A stretch of 64,000 bases of DNA, taken from NCBI GenBank assembly GCA_963833575.1, contig CAWHXY010000004.1, forward strand, positions 800,001 through 864,000, read 5' to 3'. The stretch comes from Candidatus Bathyarchaeota archaeon (GTDB lineage Archaea > Thermoproteota > Bathyarchaeia > Bathyarchaeales > Bathycorpusculaceae). The position numbers and the translations under genes were made by a program. The notes under the pieces were generated by a model. It did not search any database and was not told where the DNA came from. It was given only the letters and a program-made list of their open reading frames with translations. Shown in pieces: positions 1 to 13,488 of this stretch; the first letter of the stretch is position 1, and each line of letters opens with the position of its first letter.

Positions 1-90
1 AATATTCACGATACAAGCCATAGTTTCGTGGTGACGCATTTGCATTTGCGTTTTTCTCCTATATTCTGTGCCGGAGCCTCAGCAAACCCT
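1..90 (+). ncRNA. Putative structured RNA element, copy 1 (5' end cut by the window edge)
   Basis: Shares AGCCATAGTTTCGTG, GCATTTGCATTTGC, TTTTCTCCT and CC(G)GAG(C)CTCAGCAAACCCT with the copies at 6142-6253 and 9572-9676; hairpin GACGCA(33-38)/TGCGTT(47-52). Confidence 0.6.
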
Positions 91-1284: not shown

Positions 1285-1553
1285 CATTCCCTCTATATTG
1301 AAAATAATCTTTTGTTTCATTCTTTTCAGTAGATTAGGCTCTTAGAAATATTATTTTGTTAGTATTTCAGAGTCAAAAATCAGAAGAAATTTTGTTCTGA
1401 AGGAAAGGACAAAGAAAAACCTCAAAGGCGTGTGGGGGGGCCAAAGAAAGAGTTTTTTTGAAAAGACGAAAAGGTACCAAAAAGTAAGTCCTAAATCTAT
1501 ATATTGGTGTTGTTCAGAATGTTTTGATTAGAACTATAACTATTGGTGAGCAA

Positions 1554-1949
1554 ATGAGTAAACCAGTCGATGTCGGAGAATTACGCGTTGGCGGCTACAT
1601 GATGATTGAAGGCGAACCATGCCGCATAGTCGACATTGCCAAATCTAAACCAGGAAAACACGGATCAGCCAAAGCAAGAATTGTCGCAATCGGCGTCTTT
1701 GATAAACAAAAGAGACAATTCGTAAAACCAGTTGATCTTGGCGCTGAGGTACCTATAATTGATAAAAGGGCAGGACAAGTTTTCGCAGTTAATCCAACAG
1801 GCATTCAAATTATGGACTTGGAAACCTACGAGTACCTAGATGCTCCGTTTCCAGAAGAAGATGAGGTTCCTAAAGCCAAGCTTACTCCAGGCACAGAAAT
1901 TGAGTACTGGAGAATTCTGGGCAGAGTAAAGATCGTTAGAGCAAAATAA
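1554..1949 (+). CDS. eif5a: Translation factor aIF5A
   Basis: Hypusination motif SKPGKHGSAKAR; ATG at 1554 after GGTGA SD. Confidence 0.97.
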   Translation: MSKPVDVGELRVGGYMMIEGEPCRIVDIAKSKPGKHGSAKARIVAIGVFDKQKRQFVKPVDLGAEVPIIDKRAGQVFAVNPTGIQIMDLETYEYLDAPFPEEDEVPKAKLTPGTEIEYWRILGRVKIVRAK

Positions 1950-3229: not shown

Positions 3230-3253
3230 GTAATTAAAAAAAGTTTATCATTT

Positions 3254-3292
3254 TTTTGTATTCACGATACGTGAGTGAGTCTTATTAGCTGT
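3254..3292 (+). promoter_or_regulatory. Operator palindrome TCAC-N5-GTGA plus TATA-like CTTATTAG (promoter of beta-propeller gene 1)
   Basis: 34/39 nt identical to 6421-6459 upstream of the paralog. Confidence 0.7.
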
Positions 3293-3333
3293 TCTCGTCA
3301 GTGAAGGGTACTATGAATTTAGGAGAAAAAAAC

Positions 3334-6078
3334 ATGAAAAATTTAAGACTCAAGATATTTTCGATGATGGCTTTGTTTCTAATGCTATCTTTTGTAATTC
3401 CCTTTATGGTTACACCAATGGCTAGCGCACATACACCGGCATACCAAATTCCAACTTATGCTTTCTGTAATGTTGCGCCTAACCCTGCAGGTGTTGGACA
3501 GTCTGTTAACGTTGGCTTCTGGCTCGGTCTACCCCCACCTACGGCAGGAACTATTTACGGTGACAAATGGACTGGCATGACAGTCAAAGTTACCAAACCA
3601 GACAAAAGCACTGAGACCTTAGGACCATTTACATCCGACGACACAGGCGGATCACACACCGAATATACTCCCAGCCAACTGGGCAATTATACATTCCAAA
3701 TGAGCTATCTTGGACAAACATTAACGGGCGCTAATCCCCCACCTACCGGTTATTCTGCCGCAATAGCTGCATTCATCAATGATTCCTATCTACCTAGCAC
3801 CAGCAACATAGCAACTCTAACAGTGCAGCAAGAACCCGTTCCTGCTATTCCTCAAACTCCACTTCCAACAAACTACTGGACCCGCCCAATAGAATCAGTC
3901 AATGATTATTGGTACAGCATTAGCGGAAACTGGCTTGGACTAGGTGTACTATTTAGTGCTAATACTGGAATGTATAACGCAACAGGAAACTACAATCCTT
4001 ACACTACGGCGCCTACAACGGCTCACATCATGTGGACAAAACCTGAGACTTTCGGAGGCTTAATCGGTGGAGAATTCGGTGGGAGCGATACAAGCAATTA
4101 CTACTCAACCAGACAGTATGAGAGAATGTTCCAGCCAATAATTATGAACGGTGTTCTCTATTACGAACAATATCCGGGAAGCTCGAATAATCCCACAGGA
4201 TGGATTGCAGTCAACTTGAAGACAGGACAAACAATTTGGACTAACAATGCCCAAAACTTAGGCGGTGGTTCCCCAGCACAAAGCGCCTTAACTTCAACCG
4301 GCTTAGTTACGTCTCTACGCTGTGGTCAAACACTCAACTATATAACGCCAAACCAATATGGAGCCTTAGCATACCTATGGAGCACAGGAACGCCAATCGG
4401 AATCAATGCTGCAGCAGGAACAACAACATGGAATATGTTTGACGCCGTAACAGGGCAATACATTCTCAGCGTCGTCAACGGCAGTTCAATGGGCAACCTC
4501 CTTGAAGATAATGGAGGAGACTTAATCGGCTACTATACCAACGCTACTGTTGGCACACAAATAGTCAATGGGCAACGTGTCACTAATCCTTCCGGTGGAG
4601 CAATGTTAGAATGCTGGAACTCAACACAATGTATTATTGCTGGAACCAACGGCGCAGCAGCTTGGATGTGGAGACCCACACAAAACGGTCAAATACCCTT
4701 TGGTCTCGGGTTAATGTGGGCGCAACCATTAGCTACTAACATTTCAGGTGTCCCTCTGCCTTATTCTACAATCGCAGCTGTGTCTAGCGCAACTCTTTCA
4801 CTCCCTGCTGGAGCCTACACAACCGGCGGTGCCCAACCGAATAGTGGCGTGCTATTTTTGAGTTCAGTAGCAACAACCGGCGCTTCAAGCTATAACGCGG
4901 GATTCATCATTGAAGCTGGCTACAGTTCTGACACTGGTCAACAACTATGGATAGTTAACAGGACAGAAACACCATATACCAGAGTAGACTTCTCACAAAC
5001 TTCAAACGGCATCTTCGTAGAAATCAACCAGGATACAGCTGCATACACAGGCTACAGCATTATAACAGGTCAACAACTATGGGGACCATTCACACTTCCT
5101 AATGCGAACGCATACAACAGCATCGGCAGCTATTACGGCCAAGTCGCTAACGGCACACTGTATCTGAGCAGTTTTGGAGGAGACATATATAAAATTAATA
5201 TTCAGACAGGAGCGATCATCTGGCAAACAAACACCAACGCACTCTCAGGTCCCGCTGGCTCTGACACTCCCTATGGAGTTTGGCCAATGTGGCAATTCGG
5301 AAACCCAGGAGCAATCGCAGACGGAATGCTATTCCTCGGCGAAGGCCATGAGTACAGCCCACCGCTATTTCGTGGAGCAAACCTCATTGCAGTTAACCTA
5401 ACCACTGGACAGCTCGTATGGGAAGATATGGCTTTTGATGTAGACGGCGGCACAGCGATCTCCGATCAAGTACTGGTGGCTGAAAGCGCATATGACAACC
5501 AAATCTACGCTTATGGCACAGGACCAACTGCTATCACCGTTGATGCACCTAGCGTCGGCGTAACAACATCTACACCTGTAACAATACGCGGAACACTGAC
5601 AGACATATCTGCAGGCTCAAAGCAGGAAGCAGTTGCAGCAAACTTCCCACAAGGCCTTCCATGCGTTTCTGACCAAAGCATGACCCAATGGATGGAATAC
5701 GTCTACCAACAACAACCCATGCCTACTAACGTAACAGGTGTCCCCATCACTCTATCAGTCACAGACTCAAACGGCAACTGCTACAACATAGGTACCACAA
5801 GCACTGATGCAAAGGGCTTCTATAGCTTCAATTGGACACCCACAATCTCAGGCAGCTTCACAGTAACAGCAACCTTCGCTGGAACACAATCATATTATGG
5901 ATCATCAGCAGATACCGCCTTCTACGCAAGCCCCGTAACAACAGCAACTTCTACGCCCGCTCCAGTAACAGCTAACTATGCAACAACAACCGACTTCATG
6001 ATAGGAATAACTGCAATCATTGTAGTAGTCATTGTTTGCGTAGCAATAGCAATAGTGATGCTAAGAAAACGACCATAA
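3334..6078 (+). CDS. Secreted, C-terminally anchored PQQ-like beta-propeller repeat protein (paralog 1)
   Basis: Signal peptide; repeated A[VI][ND]LxTGQxxW blades; Ig-like ends; Thr/Pro linker, TM helix and MLRKRP tail; AGGAG SD before ATG 3334. Confidence 0.85.
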   Translation: MKNLRLKIFSMMALFLMLSFVIPFMVTPMASAHTPAYQIPTYAFCNVAPNPAGVGQSVNVGFWLGLPPPTAGTIYGDKWTGMTVKVTKPDKSTETLGPFTSDDTGGSHTEYTPSQLGNYTFQMSYLGQTLTGANPPPTGYSAAIAAFINDSYLPSTSNIATLTVQQEPVPAIPQTPLPTNYWTRPIESVNDYWYSISGNWLGLGVLFSANTGMYNATGNYNPYTTAPTTAHIMWTKPETFGGLIGGEFGGSDTSNYYSTRQYERMFQPIIMNGVLYYEQYPGSSNNPTGWIAVNLKTGQTIWTNNAQNLGGGSPAQSALTSTGLVTSLRCGQTLNYITPNQYGALAYLWSTGTPIGINAAAGTTTWNMFDAVTGQYILSVVNGSSMGNLLEDNGGDLIGYYTNATVGTQIVNGQRVTNPSGGAMLECWNSTQCIIAGTNGAAAWMWRPTQNGQIPFGLGLMWAQPLATNISGVPLPYSTIAAVSSATLSLPAGAYTTGGAQPNSGVLFLSSVATTGASSYNAGFIIEAGYSSDTGQQLWIVNRTETPYTRVDFSQTSNGIFVEINQDTAAYTGYSIITGQQLWGPFTLPNANAYNSIGSYYGQVANGTLYLSSFGGDIYKINIQTGAIIWQTNTNALSGPAGSDTPYGVWPMWQFGNPGAIADGMLFLGEGHEYSPPLFRGANLIAVNLTTGQLVWEDMAFDVDGGTAISDQVLVAESAYDNQIYAYGTGPTAITVDAPSVGVTTSTPVTIRGTLTDISAGSKQEAVAANFPQGLPCVSDQSMTQWMEYVYQQQPMPTNVTGVPITLSVTDSNGNCYNIGTTSTDAKGFYSFNWTPTISGSFTVTATFAGTQSYYGSSADTAFYASPVTTATSTPAPVTANYATTTDFMIGITAIIVVVIVCVAIAIVMLRKRP

Positions 6079-6104: not shown

Positions 6105-6119
6105 CTTTCCCTTTTTTAG
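6105..6119 (+). terminator. Pyrimidine/T-rich archaeal terminator
   Basis: CTTTCCCTTTTTTAG about 30 nt after the stop; the same tract follows paralog 2. Confidence 0.5.
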
Positions 6120-6135: not shown

Positions 6136-6204
6136 TTAATAAGGGCTGAGAAGGCTCTGGCTGAAATTCATGAAAATAGCCATAGTTTCGTGATGCATTG
6201 ACAT
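6136..6204 (-). CDS. Candidate 22-aa small ORF MSMHHETMAIFMNFSQSLLSPY antisense to the element
   Basis: AGGAG SD 9 nt before ATG; related ORFs start at 45 and 9634 in the other copies. Confidence 0.3.
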   Translation of the reverse strand: MSMHHETMAIFMNFSQSLLSPY

Positions 6205-6253
6205 TTTTCTTTTCTCCTAAAGAAGAAAATGTGCCAGAGTCTCAGCAAACCCT
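6142..6253 (+). ncRNA. Putative structured RNA element, copy 2
   Basis: Closing stem AGGG-CTGA-[GAA]-GGCTCTGG / CCAGAGTC-TCAG-[CAAA]-CCCT; inner hairpin TCATGAAA/TTTCGTGA; G-U pairs favour the + strand. Confidence 0.65.
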
Positions 6254-6420
6254 GTTCTGTTCTGCGCATTCAAAAATTGATTACTCAGCCACGATTTTGA
6301 ACTTGGAATAATTCAAGTCTTTATAGATTCCAGACCCAATTGTTGCGGATTCATTAAATTTTTCTCAATTGATATTAGCTGTGAGTGTCATTGTTTGTTT
6401 TTTTTTAAATGGACAACTTA

Positions 6421-6459
6421 TTTTGCACTCACGATAGGTGAGGGAGGCTTATTAGCTGT
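6421..6459 (+). promoter_or_regulatory. Operator palindrome CTCAC-N5-GTGAG plus TATA-like CTTATTAG (promoter of beta-propeller gene 2)
   Basis: Near-identical to 3254-3292. Confidence 0.7.
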
Positions 6460-6485: not shown

Positions 6486-9400
6486 ATGGAGAAGAAGAAA
6501 ATGAATTTAAAAACTAAAACTTCAGCTATCGTGATTGCTATATTGATGATAATTTCTATCGGAGCTTCAACATCGCTTATGCCAACTACAAAAGCACATA
6601 CACCATCCTGGCAGATTCCAACATACGCTTACATTGTCGCAGAACCTAGCCCAATAGGTGTCGGTCAAAGAATTCAAATTTACATGTGGCTTGACACAGT
6701 ATATGGAGCAGCCGGCGGAACTACAGCCGCTATAGGCACAAATGCCTCAACAGTTAGCGCAGCATTGCTAGCAAACAGCTACAGATTCCACAACTACAAA
6801 CTTACAATTACGGCTCCAGACGGAACAAACTCAACACAAACTTTCGCAACTGTCCAAGACACGACATCAAACCAATACGCAACATACGTCCCATCCCAAA
6901 CTGGCACTTACACTTTCACATTTAACTATCCAGGCGAACCATACGTTGGTTACGAAAAATCAATACTCGTTAACGATACTTACCTGCCAAGTTCTGCTTC
7001 AACAACAGTCACCGTTCAGCAAACTGCCATACCTCTACCGGTAAATAGCTATCCTCTTCCCGAAGCATACTGGACCCATCCAATCTACGGTGAAAACACC
7101 GACTGGTGGACAATCTCATCAAACTGGTTAGGTTCAGGTAACCCCGTTCCAGCAGGCTACACTAGCTCAACACTGTATCATGGAGACGCAGTAGGACCAC
7201 AAACAGGACACGTAATGTGGACAAAGCCACTTCAATTCGGAGGAGTTGTCGGCGGTAACCAATTTGTCGCAGGCGGTTCAAATCCAAACGGAGCAGTTCC
7301 AGGCGCAGCCTACTTCGACGGTGTTTCGTATCAGCCAAGATTCACAAACCCAATCATAATCAATGGATACCTATTCTACACTGAAGTATCATCATTTACA
7401 GGTCCCACAAGCGGGCCAACCGATGCAGTTGATCTTCGCACAGGGCAAGTTCTTTGGTCCAAGATGATTCCACCACTATCATTTGGCTACATATTCAACC
7501 TCTGGGATCCAGACCAACACGGAGTCTATCCACCAGTATTAGTTGCCCAAATCGGAGGCGGCGTTACCGGTCTGCCTGTTACATGGATGTTGATTGACGC
7601 CTACACAGGCGTAGGTCTCTTCAATGTAACTGATATTCCAGGTTTCGCAGGACAAACAGGCCAAACCGTAGGCGGTCAACCAGCCACAGCTCTTACAACA
7701 TTTACAGCAGCAGGACCAAACGGCGAACCACTAAGATACGTCTTTGAAAACGCAGGCACATCAACAAATCCAAACTGGTACCTTGCTGAATGGAACATGT
7801 CCAAACTCTGGCTATATGACGTCAACCCATACACAGGCGGCGGGAGCCTCTCACCTGACGTTGTCAATGTTACTGTTGGAAACGGCGGAGGAAACCTTGT
7901 TGTTAACATGCCCATCCCACTTGCAGGCGAAACAGGCACTACTCCAACTGGAGGGTCGGTCTTTATCCCATATGGTTCTACAATAACCGTTAACGGCAGC
8001 ACCACAACCGCTCAAGGCAATGCCATATCCTCAGCTAACCCAACAGGCAAGTACGACTGGAACGTTTCGGTGGCTTGGCTAAACACGATGCCTCTGCAAC
8101 CCGCATATAACGTTAACACGGGCGGAATAGTTCCACAAGTTATGCAGGGAAACTGTCCAACATTCCTCGCAGCAGGCGGAGTTAACCCAGTATCAATAGT
8201 AGCAGCTAATACCGGAGACATTATGCTCTGCAGAAACGGCACTCTGCCCACTGGTTACGCAACAACTACCACAGGCTATCCACAACTTCCATACACAATG
8301 TTCGCAGTCAACCTCAATTCTTCTCGCGGAGCGATCGGTTCAATTCTCTGGATGAAGAACTATGATCCACCAGCAGGCAACATCACTTTGCAACAGAGCG
8401 CAGTCGATTACCAGAACCGTGTCTTTATTCTAAGTTACAGAGAGACAATGCAGTGGATAGCTTACAATCTTGACACCGGCGCGTTAATGTGGGGTCCAAC
8501 GGTACCGCAAGCAGCCTTTGACTACTATGGTACACCAGGTGTTCCTACCTTGACAGCTACACTTGCATATGGCAAACTCTATAGCATGTCATTTGCAGGA
8601 ATAATGTACACCTACGACATCATGACAGGAAATCTTCTATGGACATATGGAAATGGTGGTGAAGGTAACTCAACTTTCGCAGGCTTTGCGACACCCTACG
8701 GGGTCTATCCAACTTTCGTACAATCTATTGCCAACGGAATAGTCTACATAGCAACTGATGAACACACAATCCCTGATCCATTGTATAAAGGCTCAACAAC
8801 TGCAGGTATCAATGCTACTACAGGACAAGAAATTTGGACGCTTTCAGACTATCCAGCTGAATGGTCATCCAGCGGCACAGCATACGTTGTTGCGGACGGC
8901 TATGCAACATTCATGAATAGCTACGACAACAACATCTACAGTGTAGGCAGAGGACCAAGTGCAATTACAGTTACAGCACCAAACTTTGGCGTATCTTTTG
9001 GCACACCAGTAATAATACGCGGTACAGTCATGGACAAATCTGCAGGAACAATGCAAACACAGCAAACAGCTGATTTTCCAAACGGTGTTCCAGTTGCTTC
9101 TGATGCTAGTATGAAGGATTGGATGGGTTATGTTTACCAACAGAAGCCGCTTCCAACCAACTTTACCGGCGTTCAGGTAACAATTGACGTTGTAGATTCT
9201 AATGGTAACTACCGAAATATTGGAACTGCAACCACTGATGCTACTGGCATGTATAGTCTTGCATGGACACCTAACATCTCAGGCAACTACAATGTTATCG
9301 CAACTTTCCACGGAACCAACGGTTACTGGCCATCATACGCAGAGAGCACATTTGCCGTAACAAACGCACCATCATCAACTAACGCTCCAACACCAACACC

Positions 9401-9509
9401 AATTTCAACCGCTGATCAGTACTTCCTACCAGTATCAATTGCAATAATTATCGCAATAGTGATAGTCGGCGCTGTTCTAGCTCTGCTAATGCTTAGAAAA
9501 CATCCATAA
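6486..9509 (+). CDS. Secreted, C-terminally anchored PQQ-like beta-propeller repeat protein (paralog 2)
   Basis: Same architecture as paralog 1 (AHTPxxQIPTYA start of the mature chain, SDxSMxxWMxYVYQQxPxPTN motif, MLRKHP tail); true start may be ATG 6501. Confidence 0.85.
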   Translation: MEKKKMNLKTKTSAIVIAILMIISIGASTSLMPTTKAHTPSWQIPTYAYIVAEPSPIGVGQRIQIYMWLDTVYGAAGGTTAAIGTNASTVSAALLANSYRFHNYKLTITAPDGTNSTQTFATVQDTTSNQYATYVPSQTGTYTFTFNYPGEPYVGYEKSILVNDTYLPSSASTTVTVQQTAIPLPVNSYPLPEAYWTHPIYGENTDWWTISSNWLGSGNPVPAGYTSSTLYHGDAVGPQTGHVMWTKPLQFGGVVGGNQFVAGGSNPNGAVPGAAYFDGVSYQPRFTNPIIINGYLFYTEVSSFTGPTSGPTDAVDLRTGQVLWSKMIPPLSFGYIFNLWDPDQHGVYPPVLVAQIGGGVTGLPVTWMLIDAYTGVGLFNVTDIPGFAGQTGQTVGGQPATALTTFTAAGPNGEPLRYVFENAGTSTNPNWYLAEWNMSKLWLYDVNPYTGGGSLSPDVVNVTVGNGGGNLVVNMPIPLAGETGTTPTGGSVFIPYGSTITVNGSTTTAQGNAISSANPTGKYDWNVSVAWLNTMPLQPAYNVNTGGIVPQVMQGNCPTFLAAGGVNPVSIVAANTGDIMLCRNGTLPTGYATTTTGYPQLPYTMFAVNLNSSRGAIGSILWMKNYDPPAGNITLQQSAVDYQNRVFILSYRETMQWIAYNLDTGALMWGPTVPQAAFDYYGTPGVPTLTATLAYGKLYSMSFAGIMYTYDIMTGNLLWTYGNGGEGNSTFAGFATPYGVYPTFVQSIANGIVYIATDEHTIPDPLYKGSTTAGINATTGQEIWTLSDYPAEWSSSGTAYVVADGYATFMNSYDNNIYSVGRGPSAITVTAPNFGVSFGTPVIIRGTVMDKSAGTMQTQQTADFPNGVPVASDASMKDWMGYVYQQKPLPTNFTGVQVTIDVVDSNGNYRNIGTATTDATGMYSLAWTPNISGNYNVIATFHGTNGYWPSYAESTFAVTNAPSSTNAPTPTPISTADQYFLPVSIAIIIAIVIVGAVLALLMLRKHP

Positions 9510-9571: not shown

Positions 9572-9676
9572 GGGGCTGAGTAGACTCTGGTTAAATTTCA
9601 CAAAATAGCCGTAGTCGTAATGGAGCATTTGCATTTGCTCGTTTTCTCCTTGTTTTCCAGAGTCTCAGCAAACCCT
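9572..9676 (+). ncRNA. Putative structured RNA element, copy 3
   Basis: GGGG-CTGA-[GTA]-GACTCTGG / CCAGAGTC-TCAG-[CAAA]-CCCT; hairpin GAGCA(9623-9627)/TGCTC(9636-9640). Confidence 0.65.
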
Positions 9677-9987
9677 AAACGCGATAGTCTCAAGACTCGG
9701 ATGCTCATAGATAGATGCTCTTGAAAATAGTTGAGTTTTAAACTTAAACTTAAAGTTTTACGAATACCTTGTCAAACACTCATTTACGTTTGAAAGAGAG
9801 ATTGAAAGATAGAAACGTTTAAAGTAAAAGTCAATAGGTTGAAAAAATAAAGTAAAACCTGATTTTAGCTTTTGTTTATTCCATCTTCTACTCTTTTTCA
9901 GAAATTTCACAGCCTAAATTGTTCAGGCTTAAAGCCAATTGATAAACGGCCAACGTGGCAAAAAATGTGAATAGCTATTTCTATTTC

Positions 9988-10344: not shown

Positions 10345-10655
10345 AGGAAACATTGCCCTGAAAAAGCAAAAGAATAGACCTCTATTAACTGGAATGCTCT
10401 TTTACCCCTCTAACTTCTAAACTTATGTTTTAAAAAATCGCATCCACCTTTTCGCTTAACGTTACAGAATTGATACAAAGTGGCGTCCGCCCAAAAAATC
10501 GAGCGAAGAATATATAGTTAAGTCTTAAAACTACTAAATTGCATAGTTTAGTGGCAAAAAGCGAAAACAAAAAGCTACCCTATATATGTCCAAAGCAAAC
10601 AATAATCAAGCTTGAAAGCGGTAGCATCTCTATACTAAGGGAAAGGAGCAGTACA

Positions 10656-12344
10656 TTGCTTAGTAAACTGTGGAACACGCTCAATAAGTTGTCCTCTAAA
10701 AAACCCTTAAAGTACTCTCTCTACCTTTCTGTGATCGTTGTTTTTTTTGCGATAATTCTTGTTCCACCAATAATTGGAATCCTGATCAAAGCGCCAACAA
10801 TGCAAAGCGTTTTTAACCAGCCTGCTTTGATGAACCAAGCCTTAGGCGCTATCTCTAACTCTTTTATTATCGGTTTGATTGTTGCAGCTCTTGATTTGCT
10901 GGCAGGGGTACCATTAGCTTGGCTTATCTCCCGGGGAAAATCACGTTGGCTAAGTATCCTTGATACTTTGGCTGATCTTCCTTTTGTGGTGCCCACTGCA
11001 GCTTTGGGCTACTCTCTTTTGTTGTTTTGGAGCCTTGGCGGAGGAATATCCTCTTTCTTTGCTGGTCCTCTCGTTTCTCCTGGATGGCTTCTTGTTATGC
11101 TCCTGCATTTCACTTTTTCATTCCCAGTTGTTGTTCGCATCATGGTTGGCGCAATGCTCGATTATAAAATGGAGTATGAACGCGCTTCTCGAACGCTTGG
11201 GGCTCCTCCATTGACGGCTTCAAGAACTGTCACTTTTCCCATCATTAAGCCGTCTTTAATTGCGGCATTTTCTCTTGCTTTCGCAAGATCTCTTTCTGAA
11301 ACAGGCGCCACCTTCATTGTAGCAGGGGCAGTATTCATGAATGGACCTGTTTTTCTTCAGAATCTAAGCAATGAATTCAAAAGTGGTGCCATACCCTTAA
11401 GTACTTACGAGGGCGCAACGGTTTTTGCAAGCATTATTTTGATAGCGGTTTCGTTAACACTTTTTGCGTTAATACGCGTAGTAGGTCAAAGGGTAAAGTT
11501 ACCTTTTGGTCATGGCTTGCCCGTTTTCGAAAAGAAACTTAGCTACAAGAAAGCTGCTTGGTCACGAAACAGCATCACCCTTGCCGTCTTCATAATAATA
11601 ATATTAATTCCCTCAGTTTTCGTTGCATTGCCAGCCTTCCAGGCAATCGCCAGCGGAACACCATTAATTCAAGCTCTTAGTGGCCAGGGGATTTGGAGTA
11701 GCTTTTGGCAAAGCCTAGTTTTATCCTACGGTTTAGGGGTTATTGTAACAGTTTTAGGTATTTTACTTGGCATCCCTATGGCGATCCTCATTGCGCGCAA
11801 AACATTCGGCAAATTACCGAGTACCATTCTTGACAGTCTACTGAATGTTCCAATTATTGTGCCCTCAATTGCACTTGGCGTTTCCTTGAAATTCTTCTGG
11901 CAAGGCATCCCTGGCATACCCGAATTTCTTTTGCTAGTTTTTGCGCACTTGGCAATTACTTACCCGTACTTTGTTAGATCTATGTCAGCGGCTATGGAGA
12001 GAATAAATGTTGATATGGAAGAAGCGGCAAGAACTCTGGGCGCCAAACCCTTCACTGTTTTCCGCTCAATAGTGTTGCCTTTAACAAAATACTCGATTCT
12101 ATCTGGCGCCATTATCGTTTTTACAAGAAGCGTAAGCGAGACCGGGGCCACCTTAGCTGTTTCGTCAAACCTGAAGACTGCTCCTGTACTTATTGTCAGT
12201 TGGGTTAATTCGCTAAGGGGCACAATCCCGCCAATTGCAGGTGTTAATTCATTAACTGTTGGTTTAGCTTGTGGCTTTCTGATACTGTTTAGTTTCATAA
12301 TCCTGTTGGTTTTGAGGCTATTCACTAGAAAGGGGAAGACTTAG
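10656..12344 (+). CDS. ABC importer permease with two fused BPD_transp_1 domains (FbpB/ModB/WtpB-like)
   Basis: Two EAA-type loops (ERASRTLGA, EEAARTLGA); TTG start after AGGAG. Confidence 0.85.
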   Translation: MLSKLWNTLNKLSSKKPLKYSLYLSVIVVFFAIILVPPIIGILIKAPTMQSVFNQPALMNQALGAISNSFIIGLIVAALDLLAGVPLAWLISRGKSRWLSILDTLADLPFVVPTAALGYSLLLFWSLGGGISSFFAGPLVSPGWLLVMLLHFTFSFPVVVRIMVGAMLDYKMEYERASRTLGAPPLTASRTVTFPIIKPSLIAAFSLAFARSLSETGATFIVAGAVFMNGPVFLQNLSNEFKSGAIPLSTYEGATVFASIILIAVSLTLFALIRVVGQRVKLPFGHGLPVFEKKLSYKKAAWSRNSITLAVFIIIILIPSVFVALPAFQAIASGTPLIQALSGQGIWSSFWQSLVLSYGLGVIVTVLGILLGIPMAILIARKTFGKLPSTILDSLLNVPIIVPSIALGVSLKFFWQGIPGIPEFLLLVFAHLAITYPYFVRSMSAAMERINVDMEEAARTLGAKPFTVFRSIVLPLTKYSILSGAIIVFTRSVSETGATLAVSSNLKTAPVLIVSWVNSLRGTIPPIAGVNSLTVGLACGFLILFSFIILLVLRLFTRKGKT

Positions 12345-12393
12345 AATGGCAACTTGCAAAAGCGTTAAAAATCTTTCGAAGGAGAGTTAACTT

Positions 12394-13488
12394 GTGCCGG
12401 ACATTAAAGTCGTAAACTTAACCAAAAAATACGGAAAAATATACGCCCTAGATAATGTCAGTTTAATGATACGTGACCAAGAATATTTCTCTTTGTTGGG
12501 ACCGAGCGGCTGCGGAAAAACCACCCTGTTGCGGCTTGTAGCGGGTCTTATTGAACCTGACGAAGGGGAAATTTACATAGGCGATAGACGAGTTGACAAT
12601 ATTCCTCCTGAAGATAGAGACGTAGGCTTTGTTTTCCAAACTTTCGCGTTGTTTCCACACATGACTGCTTGGGGCAACGTTATTTATGGTCCAAAAGTTA
12701 AAAACTACGATGCTAAAGAGGCCGACGTTATCGGTCATGAAGTTCTTGAACTGGTGAAACTTGATGAACGCTTAGATGCTTACCCCTCCGAACTAAGCGG
12801 CGGCATGATGCAAAGAATAGCAGTTGCTCGAGCATTGGCCGCCGGCGCCAAAACATTGCTCTTAGATGAACCACTCGGTCAATTAGACGCAAAAGTACGA
12901 AATGACATACGATATGAAATCAGAAAGATGGCAAAAGACCTCAAATTAACTGCTATCCACGTCACTCATGACCAGGCAGAAGCCATGTCAATCTCAGACA
13001 GAATTGCAGTCATGAAAAAAGGAAAAATCGTTCAAATTGGAACTCCACAAGAACTATATATGCATCCGAACAGCTTGTTTGTTGCCCACTTTATTGGGGA
13101 ATCCAATTTTTTAGAAGGCTACATTGCCCAAACAAATGGGTACTCTAAGCTAGAGTTACGAGATGGATTGAGAGTTAACGCAGTAAATCCCGGCATAAAA
13201 CAAGGTGAAAGAGTAGTTTTAGCTATTAGACCTGAAACTTGCGAGATGAAAAAAGGAAACGACCTTACAGAAGGTTTGGTTGGAAAAATTGTAAAAGTCA
13301 CATTTGAAGGAACTATGGTTCGCTATGATATCAGGCTTGAAAACGGAGACCACTTGATAATAAACCGGCAATCACTAGCTGAAAATTGGTTTGAAATTGG
13401 TGAAGAAGTAACAATAACTTATCCACTTGAAAAGGCTCATCTCTTTCCATATCCTGAAGAGGGTTTAATCAAGGAAATTTCTGTCTAA
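12394..13488 (+). CDS. ABC importer ATP-binding subunit (PotA/FbpC-like, C-terminal TOBE)
   Basis: GPSGCGKT, LSGGMMQR, LLLDEP, VTHDQ. Confidence 0.9.
   Translation: MPDIKVVNLTKKYGKIYALDNVSLMIRDQEYFSLLGPSGCGKTTLLRLVAGLIEPDEGEIYIGDRRVDNIPPEDRDVGFVFQTFALFPHMTAWGNVIYGPKVKNYDAKEADVIGHEVLELVKLDERLDAYPSELSGGMMQRIAVARALAAGAKTLLLDEPLGQLDAKVRNDIRYEIRKMAKDLKLTAIHVTHDQAEAMSISDRIAVMKKGKIVQIGTPQELYMHPNSLFVAHFIGESNFLEGYIAQTNGYSKLELRDGLRVNAVNPGIKQGERVVLAIRPETCEMKKGNDLTEGLVGKIVKVTFEGTMVRYDIRLENGDHLIINRQSLAENWFEIGEEVTITYPLEKAHLFPYPEEGLIKEISV

Follow-up and report, generated by a model that had tools for sequence, protein, structure and literature searches.

Archaeal splicing endonuclease (EndA) acts on bulge-helix-bulge (BHB) motifs in tRNA introns and in the regions that flank 16S and 23S rRNA, and BHB introns outside tRNA and rRNA are known from the cbf5 mRNA of Crenarchaeota and, as an intron of 46 nt, from the 5' UTR of Haloferax HVO_1309 (PMC7714728). 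In the accessible portion of that report, cbf5 and HVO_1309 are the only examples named outside tRNA and rRNA. The element described here, from a genome of the Bathyarchaeia, resembles these substrates in its two 3-nt bulges spaced 4 bp apart, its polarity, and the predicted rule for cutting; its host has both EndA and RtcB, its excised piece is expected to circularise, and, like cbf5 and HVO_1309, it lies outside tRNA and rRNA. It differs in that there are 25 copies per genome, which belong to a sequence family found across two GTDB families, and in that it lies behind the T-run of a gene or stands alone, rather than inside a functional RNA or a coding region. Furthermore, the sequence of its frame is nearly invariant, its outer helix is just 2 to 3 bp long, and the product appears to be the piece that is cut out rather than the flanks that are joined.

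BHB motifs also mature permuted RNA genes, such as the permuted SRP RNA of Thermoproteus and permuted tRNAs. Copies of the element can likewise be stand-alone non-coding genes in which leader and trailer form a BHB that sets the mature ends, but nothing suggests that forming a circle returns some known, permuted RNA to its normal order, and no Rfam match was found. Circular RNAs of archaea were reportedly described by Danan et al. in 2012. Those on record include tRNA introns, pre-rRNA circles, C/D box RNAs and circular omega-RNAs (PMC12558985). A small circle produced by cleavage and ligation at a BHB, with a detectable back-splice joint, is predicted for the element as well; the BHB circles known so far are by-products or intermediates of processing.

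A functional comparison is offered by sRNA162 of Methanosarcina mazei, an antisense small RNA that masks a ribosome-binding site (PMC3510493). On the evidence of the available excerpt, both RNAs have an exposed, pyrimidine-rich segment complementary to the Shine-Dalgarno sequence (SD) and start codon of their targets, whereas the element is framed by a BHB, is probably circular, has many copies beside genes of the target family, and is known from sequence alone. In the published literature, supplements aside, no BHB circle carrying the antisense of mRNA start sites was found, nor any description of BHB-framed antisense RNAs or of the present element.

A canonical bulge-helix-bulge frame conserved across genera

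In the window, the whole 64,000-nucleotide stretch of DNA that was analysed, AGGGCTGAGAAGGCTCTGG (6142-6160) pairs with CCAGAGTCTCAGCAAACCCT (6234-6253) on the + strand. The pairing of these arms had been proposed in a preliminary description, and both sequences are present and complementary. As was also proposed there, the copies have one 3' arm in common, and TCAGCAAACCCT is invariant, being identical in copies 1, 2, and 3. The fold of 6140-6256 on the + strand had an energy of -37.9 kcal/mol (z = -3.92), and none of 200 shuffled sequences folded as well; the z value on the - strand was -3.20. The parts of the element are as follows.

6142..6144, + strand: outer helix h, 5' strand; G6143 and G6144 pair with C6251 and C6250, and A6142 and C6252 are unpaired in the window copy
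6145..6148, + strand: central helix H, 5' strand, GCUG; 4 bp with 6243-6246
6149..6151, + strand: 5' bulge, AGA; predicted cut between 6150 and 6151 by the rule from the host tRNA
6152..6160, + strand: inner helix h', 5' strand; 9 bp with 6234-6242, each pair changed on both sides
6168..6193, + strand: internal hairpin 1, UCAUGAAA...UUUCGUGA; its sequence differs between genera
6202..6218, + strand: anti-TIR segment CATTTTTCTTTTCTCCT, the reverse complement of the SD-spacer-ATG of family genes
6234..6242, + strand: inner helix h', 3' strand
6243..6246, + strand: central helix H, 3' strand, CAGC
6247..6249, + strand: 3' bulge, AAA; predicted cut between 6248 and 6249
6250..6252, + strand: outer helix h, 3' strand, CCC
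6151..6248, + strand: predicted excised piece of 98 nt; ligation of 6248 to 6151 into a circle would be expected

The register in this list differs from the one first described. A central helix of 4 bp with a bulge 3' of it on each strand was retained, but its register proved to be one base off. Inside the host genome the register is ambiguous because the arms hardly vary and U6242 is able to pair with either A6149 or A6152. The pair assumed earlier, A6149-U6242, appears as A-U in 18 of 32 homologs and as A-C in the other 14; pairing with A6149 thus fails across genera, as 14 of the 32 have C at the 6242 position opposite an invariant A. Where the 6242 position is C, the base at the 6152 position turns to G, and among the same 32 homologs, which span genera, the pair 6152:6242 covaries (A-U in 14, G-C in 13, G-U in 4, and A-C in 1). 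Once the register is corrected by this covariation, the supposed second bulge of 4 nt, which had been considered non-canonical, vanishes, and both bulges are 3 nt long. The closure that had been termed BHB-like is therefore closer to the textbook form than was supposed.

In the corrected register, 96.7% of the 512 cells in the 32-sequence cross-genome alignment pair, and 11 of the 16 pairs, including all 9 of the inner helix, have changed on both sides. None of 500 shuffles reached any of five pairing measures, and slid controls paired at 24.6 to 54.7%. Pairing is far beyond chance, and the conserved motif is a canonical 3-4-3 hBHBh' BHB.

Bulges and pairs were scored in 61 copies out of 68 distinct sequences; the other 7 were dropped for having fewer than 12 of 16 pairs, and three of these were weak minus-strand model hits. 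The preliminary description had held that homologs ought to keep the bulges, and bulge length was constant at 3 nt in 61 of 61 scored copies. The 5' bulge follows the pattern A-R-N and begins with A without exception (61 of 61), and 60 copies have AAA as their 3' bulge. Each position of the central helix forms a standard pair in 59 to 61 of the copies. The outer helix is short, with only 2 to 3 G-C pairs, two of which are kept in 56 to 61 of the 61 and the third in 43. In the inner helix, G-U or U-G pairs outnumber A-C or C-A combinations 29 to 11 over the same 61 copies, an excess that favours an RNA read from the + strand. The polarity of the BHB is correct on the + strand only.

When copies in the host genome, where position 6242 is U, were folded with ViennaRNA, most preferred a slipped register with a central helix of 5 to 6 bp, which is slightly more stable. 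The canonical register is the conserved one, yet it is not the computed optimum in the host genome. From one genus to another, there is hardly any sequence change in the central helix, the bulges, or the outer helix. Such near-invariance is more than EndA requires and hints at a further reader of the frame.

Substrates in the host itself provide a direct comparison. ARAGORN detected intron-bearing tRNAs in the host genome, and the intron of tRNA-Arg(CCG) is framed by UCGGC-CUCC-GG^A ... GGAG-UU^A-GCCGA, with its borders (^) after the second base of each bulge. The two flanks of the host 16S rRNA, when folded together, form CUCC-AAA ... GGAG-CAA between helices of 9 bp and 13 bp. The element has the same geometry and polarity as both, and the bulges of the 16S flank are A-rich too. 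The EndA polarity that had been claimed for the element, with the bulge 3' of the central helix on each strand, is thus that of the host tRNA-Arg(CCG) intron and the 16S flank. The host genome encodes two EndA (PF01974) paralogs, at C7:351219 and C6:37209, which score 96 and 70.5 bits, are encoded by ORFs of 184 and 185 aa, and differ at a corresponding place, with EHAPY in one and DTAPY in the other. Two EndA paralogs would make up a heterotetrameric enzyme with relaxed specificity. RtcB is also present (588 bits). The two 3-nt bulges 4 bp apart, the polarity, and the flanking helices place the element among the hBHBh' substrates, and the presence of these genes points to EndA and RtcB as the probable enzymes. 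According to the cut rule of the host tRNA, the predicted piece extends from 6151 to 6248 (98 nt), in place of the circle of ~96 nt from about 6152 to 6247 that had been expected.

Several other identities were considered and rejected. A search of the whole window against Rfam gave no matches at the gathering score, and the two matches around the element were at chance level (E about 4). Box C/D sRNAs and K-turns are recognised by a C box (RUGAUGA), a D box (CUGA), and tandem G-A pairs; CUGA is present in the element, but no RUGAUGA is conserved in alignments A1 and A2, and the CUGA forms Watson-Crick pairs with UCAG/CAG; the element has no Rfam match. The element sequence does not fit the hammerhead consensus, CUGANGA...GAAA. 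Integron attC sites have core sites (RYYYAAC / GTTRRRY) at their ends and form cassette arrays beside an integrase. On one strand, the arms of the element are GGGGCTGA / CAGCAAACCC, and on the opposite one GGGTTTGCTG; GTTRRRY is absent, and the copies are dispersed among four contigs, where they follow promoter-bearing genes that belong to a single family. Small ORFs in both directions were rejected too, as their frames and lengths differ from copy to copy.

Copies, gene context, and transcription

The element is ~110 bases long. In the host genome of 2.75 Mb, BLAST together with a regular expression identified 21 full copies, and covariance models 24 to 25; the copies are scattered over four contigs. 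The neighbourhood of the three copies in the window includes the following features.

1..90, + strand: copy 1, cut by the window start (genome C4:799980-800090); 3' arm at 71-90; no family gene upstream
3301..6078, + strand: upstream family gene; signal peptide, PQQ_2 beta-propeller, Ig-like domain, and C-terminal membrane anchor ending LRKRP
6112..6117, + strand: T6 run within CCCTTTCCCTTTTTTAG, 24 nt ahead of the element; terminator-like for the upstream gene
6486..9509, + strand: downstream family gene; likely start ATG at 6501, GGAG at 6488-6491
9572..9676, + strand: copy 3, behind the gene ending at 9509; bulges at 9579-9581 (AGU) and 9670-9672 (AAA); predicted piece 9581-9671

The likely start of the upstream gene is the ATG at 3334, behind AGGAG. 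Both window genes encode a signal peptide, a PQQ_2 beta-propeller, and Ig-like domains, and their products are thus cell-surface proteins. Throughout the host genome, 17 of the 21 copies sit 60 to 75 nt behind the stop codon of a same-strand open frame of 843 to 1,076 aa, and each of these frames closes with a hydrophobic stretch plus a basic tail (for example, LRKRP). No family gene precedes the remaining four copies. When family loci were identified by tblastn (loci of at least 1.5 kb), an element was present within 400 nt downstream at 14 of 25 host loci and was missing from 11. Related genes at 23 loci elsewhere, in Bathyarchaeia of peat and bog origin, are followed directly by an element in 9 cases.

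Model R1 detected the element in 35 of 151 genomes of the host GTDB family, representing 13 of 70 genera, and four of the five other genomes of the host genus gave no match to the element model. In a class-wide sample, 12 of 151 genomes had the element: 7 of 15 in the home family and 3 of 5 in a second family of the same order, with 1 of 27 in a third family, a single match at a contig end. The range of the element family covers two GTDB families.

Of 66 distinct elements, 50 are preceded, at a distance of no more than 100 nt, by a run of five or more T, and in 36 of those 50 the run lies 19 to 33 nt ahead of the element (median, 27). This run resembles a terminator of the preceding gene, in which case the element would arise by read-through. 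Alternatively, the T-run, together with AGTCTTAAAA that follows it in some copies, may be a TATA-like box for the element. Most copies are preceded by a run of 6 to 8 T, at which much read-through should stop, and this counts against expression by read-through. At six loci in other genera there is no gene in front of the element; a conserved TTTAAA-type box lies about 45 to 50 nt upstream, a divergent TrmB-family gene is adjacent, and a T-run follows 20 to 45 nt downstream. At two of the six, part of the upstream motif recurs ahead of the next family gene. The promoter-like box and T-run suggest that the element forms a small RNA gene in its own right at these six loci, with a short leader and trailer that would serve only to close the BHB. 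The preliminary description had assumed a read-through transcript outside any tRNA or rRNA context; the context is as stated, but read-through is not the only route, given the promoter-like box in some genera.

Antisense of gene starts in the interior of the element

The most conserved stretch of the interior is pyrimidine-rich (UUCUCCU and its flanks) and is preceded in many copies by UUGCAUUU. The segment at 6202-6218 is the reverse complement of AGGAGAAAAGAAAAATG, a 17-mer that consists of an SD, a spacer, and a start codon. This 17-mer occurs six times in the 2.75-Mb genome: at the starts of four family genes, which have 868 to 977 codons and the family signal peptide, at one other gene, and on the minus strand of the element. 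Two more sites were found when one mismatch was allowed, and both are starts of family genes. The region from SD to ATG of the downstream gene in the window is complementary to 6202-6218 at 15 of 16 positions, two G-U pairs counted.

The relationship extends to the other copies. Antisense local alignment of the 21 host elements with six family gene starts gave scores of 24 to 51, compared to shuffle means of 18 to 21, and 20 of the 21 copies scored above the best of 30 shuffles; sense scores (18 to 26) were at shuffle level. With one gene, the antisense match continues beyond the ATG and into the opening codons (79% over query positions 41-89 of 131; window 6170-6218). Predicted duplexes between interiors and start regions had a mean energy of -17.1 kcal/mol, versus -10.5 for shuffled and -7.5 for reverse-complemented (sense) interiors. 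In the duplex energies of the host copies, no specificity code between an element and its own upstream gene was visible: the means were -16.4 kcal/mol for the own upstream gene and -17.2 kcal/mol for other paralogs, and the cognate gene ranked 2nd to 13th of 14. The antisense segment has low sequence complexity, being rich in U/C and facing A/G-rich partners.

Elements from other peat MAGs behaved similarly; 10 of 13 scored above the best of 20 shuffles, and UUGCAU in the element answers to ATG-CAA in the gene. In G234, a genome of the second GTDB family, the genes start with GAAGGTGAAAAA-ATG-AAAAAA and the elements carry TTTTTTCATTTTTTCACCTTC, an exact complement of the gene start in which CACC replaces CUCC. 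The corresponding 21-mer had 7 matches at up to 2 mismatches, versus 0 for the reversed control; among those whose place was examined, two are on the antisense strand of elements and one is at a gene start. Since GGAG genes are accompanied by CUCC elements and GGTG/GGUG genes by CACC elements, the SD of the gene and the anti-SD of the element change together.

The 3' end of the host 16S rRNA reads ...CACCUCCU and terminates in GAUCACCUCCU, so that the element offers the mRNAs a rival to the anti-SD of the ribosome. When the window piece was folded as a circle, UCUCCU lay in a hairpin loop with an unpaired probability of 0.72 to 1.0. The match to SD and start codon in the target mRNAs exceeds chance, and it is a feature by which antisense RNAs that mask ribosome-binding sites are recognised. 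This antisense cargo is a newer point than the BHB frame, and probably the more important one.

Processing, alternatives, and a possible role

In order to find the joint that circularisation would produce, a 25-nt junction motif built on the arms of the host genome and a looser 19-nt version were searched against metagenome_contigs. The 25-nt motif had no matches in this collection. The 19-nt motif had 47 loci, about what chance would give (some 30 in a rough estimate made by hand), and 44 of these are unrelated sequence. The three others (L117, L139, and L141; records Ga0265604_100698, Ga0257136_1003727, and Ga0257144_1002231) hold an element of the family (46.6, 37.4, and 27.7 bits, respectively) behind a gene end and a T-run. 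Their contigs are 3,240, 2,955, and 3,017 nt long, about the length of one family mRNA plus an element, and the joint lies 35 to 75 nt from one end. Past CAGC-AA there is no A-CCC; instead, the sequence jumps back into the 5' bulge at its third base, passes through the inner helix, and copies the beginning of its own element base for base to the contig end, with periods of 105, 106, and 105 nt. The 5' bulge is AGU in L139 and L141, so that the joint is unambiguous there, between G and U in the 5' bulge and between AA and A in the 3' bulge, and these are the canonical BHB cut sites. The interiors of the three differ from one another and each repeat is identical to its own first pass, as would be produced by an assembler entering a cycle and unlike old tandem duplications. 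In a collection of DNA assemblies with one genome per species, the 19-nt motif had 23 matches, all in bacteria-titled records and none with features of the element; that collection does contain carriers of the linear element. Circles are supported if the loop-back contigs come from an RNA library, and tandem duplication rather than circles if they come from a DNA library. In these relatives, cleavage after the second base of each bulge and ligation into a circle may take place, should the loop-back contigs be of RNA origin.

Metatranscriptomes provided little coverage of the element. At most 0.13 of the sampled words were present in any of 24 peat, wetland, and soil metatranscriptomes. In four that were searched at 88% likeness, contigs cover both coding regions well and the bins 6156-6339 and 9652-9835 hardly at all. 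No joint of 6248 to 6151 was listed in these four; as the contigs belong to related strains, neither the sparse cover nor the lack of the joint is informative. RNA-library contigs cover position 9641, inside copy 3, in two runs, which says neither strand nor level.

Considered together, these results lead us to propose, with moderate confidence, that the element encodes a circular antisense RNA, matured by EndA and RtcB, that masks the translation starts of a surface-protein family. The excision of a circle suggested in the preliminary description finds support in the structure and in the likeness to substrates of the host, and indirect support in the loop-back contigs. Processing of the window's own copies and the regulatory effect are both predicted from sequence. 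A small non-coding RNA cassette would be transcribed from the + strand, with transcription continuing beyond the T-run of the surface-protein gene or, in some genera, starting at a promoter that belongs to the cassette. The two ends of this RNA would fold into the canonical BHB motif, EndA (two paralogs) would cut after 6150 and 6248, the second base of each 3-nt bulge, and RtcB would join the ends of the 98-nt piece. The resulting circle would be a 9-bp stem closed by the loop CAGCAA+A and would display a pyrimidine-rich antisense of the SD-spacer-AUG of the paralogous surface-protein mRNAs. Pairing with their start regions would compete with the 3' end of the 16S rRNA and lower translation, and the output of one family member would thus be coupled to that of others.

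The antisense cargo is strongly supported independently of the frame, and it could also be carried by an RNA that remains linear. The element would then be a + strand antisense or 3'-UTR element, whose stem is a clamp that presents the anti-TIR in cis or in trans and is left uncut by EndA. The outer helix is weak, the computed optimum in the host genome is a slipped, non-canonical register, and the junction was seen in contigs of relatives, not from the window's own copies, all of which would suit a linear RNA. However, a clamp needs no two 3-nt bulges exactly 4 bp apart, and these were kept in 61 of 61 copies and fixed by covariation. The loop-back contigs join exactly at the BHB cut sites, and the stand-alone copies with a promoter-like box are no 3' UTRs. 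It seems unlikely that the RNA remains linear.

With up to 25 copies per genome, the element might also be a selfish intron-like or MITE-like repeat that is spreading through the Bathyarchaeia, in which case the BHB would permit harmless removal and the likeness to gene starts would reflect an origin from an inverted fragment. Its distribution is patchy (found in 13 of 70 genera and, within its own genus, in 1 of 5 other genomes), 4 of the 21 host copies lack a family gene in front, and the antisense similarity at window 6170-6218 reaches into first codons (79%). We regard such an origin as improbable, given that the copies have a fixed place 60 to 75 nt behind one gene family and always the same orientation, that the interior follows the SD type of the host in two GTDB families, as a decaying fragment would not, and that some copies have a promoter-like box of their own beside a TrmB gene. 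A search of the host genome for empty sites gave 4 short matches, none of them related to the element.

A signal at the level of DNA is very improbable. The segments at 6202-6218 and about 6487-6503 are inverted repeats about 270 bp apart that bracket TTTTTTTTTAAAT, the promoter-like sequence of the next gene, and inversion or gene conversion between them could vary the surface in an organism with a large paralogous family of surface proteins. Many copies, such as copy 3, have no family gene downstream, however, and the stems are RNA-like in tolerating G-U but much less A-C. This explanation would leave the covarying BHB frame without a role, and no inverted variant was seen. An active minus strand, on which AGGAGAAAAGAAAAATG leads into a short open frame, 22 codons long in the window copy, or which serves as a decoy for ribosome binding, finds some encouragement in the stable - strand fold (z = -3.20) but is the least credible reading of all, as many copies have a hairpin inserted between SD and ATG, the frame varies in both length and sequence among copies and genera, the 29-to-11 preference for G-U over A-C and the promoter-like box and T-run of stand-alone copies belong to the + strand, and the bulge polarity is wrong on the - strand.

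The EndA/RtcB-matured circular antisense RNA could be part of something larger, although this extension is tentative and we would not yet expect it to hold. Each transcribed surface-protein gene may spill into its BHB cassette and yield a stable circular antisense RNA against the ribosome-binding region shared by ~25 paralogs, a family-wide circuit of translational control in the Bathyarchaeia built from tRNA-splicing machinery. If such a circuit exists, surface proteins would repress one another or be expressed to the exclusion of the rest, much as antigenic variation is controlled outside the archaea, and its RNA would be the first regulatory circular RNA from a splicing endonuclease. The question is open to testing, since single-base predictions are at hand for cut sites, junction, and target sites alike. 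What is described here is a family of BHB cassettes in uncultured peat archaea of two families in which EndA apparently manufactures a product rather than removing an intron. Its antisense product would give archaeal circular RNAs a regulatory role, one that is tied to a large repertoire of surface proteins.

Flanking genes and tRNA genes

The surface-protein gene cluster in the window is flanked by ordinary genes. ARAGORN identified 44 tRNA genes in the genome, 8 of them with introns, some of which are doubtful or at noncanonical positions. An orphan copy of the bulge-helix-bulge-framed element, at C4:745038, sits 220 nt from tRNA-Ser(CGA).

Features flanking the surface-protein cluster, 5′-UTR motifs, and a tRNA gene
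Window 1524-1949, aIF5A-like gene, flanking the cluster
Window 3251-3292 and 6418-6459, family-gene 5′-UTR motif, TTCACGATACGTGAGTGAG...CTTATTAGC, a small hairpin
Window 10539-13488, ABC transporter pair (permease and ATPase), flanking the cluster
Genome C4:744701-744822, tRNA gene (ARAGORN)

Tandem elements and sequence behind the gene stop

One locus in another genome (L035; G016:C3:46414-49523) contains three elements within 900 nt, with a spacing of only 25 nt between two of them. All three elements have complete arms; the locus is therefore a tandem array in the genome and clearly distinct from the contigs that loop back into the element at the predicted cut sites. In run X3, one RNA-library contig links the end of the T-run at window position 6117, via the letters TAGTC, back to 5813; this joint is probably a chimera between paralogs.

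In a second GTDB family, a small hairpin with the sequence CTCCC-T7-GGGAG encloses the T-run directly 3′ of the gene stop (L088, L089, L100, L101, and the loop-back contig L117), whereas the family represented in the window has a plain CCCC-T6-AG.

Motifs shared by the element and the surface-protein genes

By a count made by eye, about half of the copies have a GGAG(A) box 10 to 16 nt 5′ of the element (for example, L074, L077, L082, and the genome's own copies at C7:481082 and C4:949050), and this leader box is not universal. The box could mask the internal CUCC of the element by pairing with it in the precursor.

The 5′-UTR hairpin of the family genes is conserved and was also found in other metagenome-assembled genomes (L065 and L069). 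TTCACGATAC is common to this motif and to hairpin 1 of the element (window 6168 to 6193), in the same sense, so that one factor may bind both hairpins, or UCGUGA of the element may pair with the 5′-UTR motif.

At two loci with stand-alone elements (L037 and L043), the motif GTCAGAAG(A/T)GGCACTT precedes a TATA-like box, ∼60 to 100 nt 5′ of the element on the element strand, beside a divergent gene for a TrmB-family regulator. The same motif recurs 5′ of the next family gene at both loci. This common promoter-region motif near a TrmB-family gene suggests coregulation of the element with the surface-protein gene.
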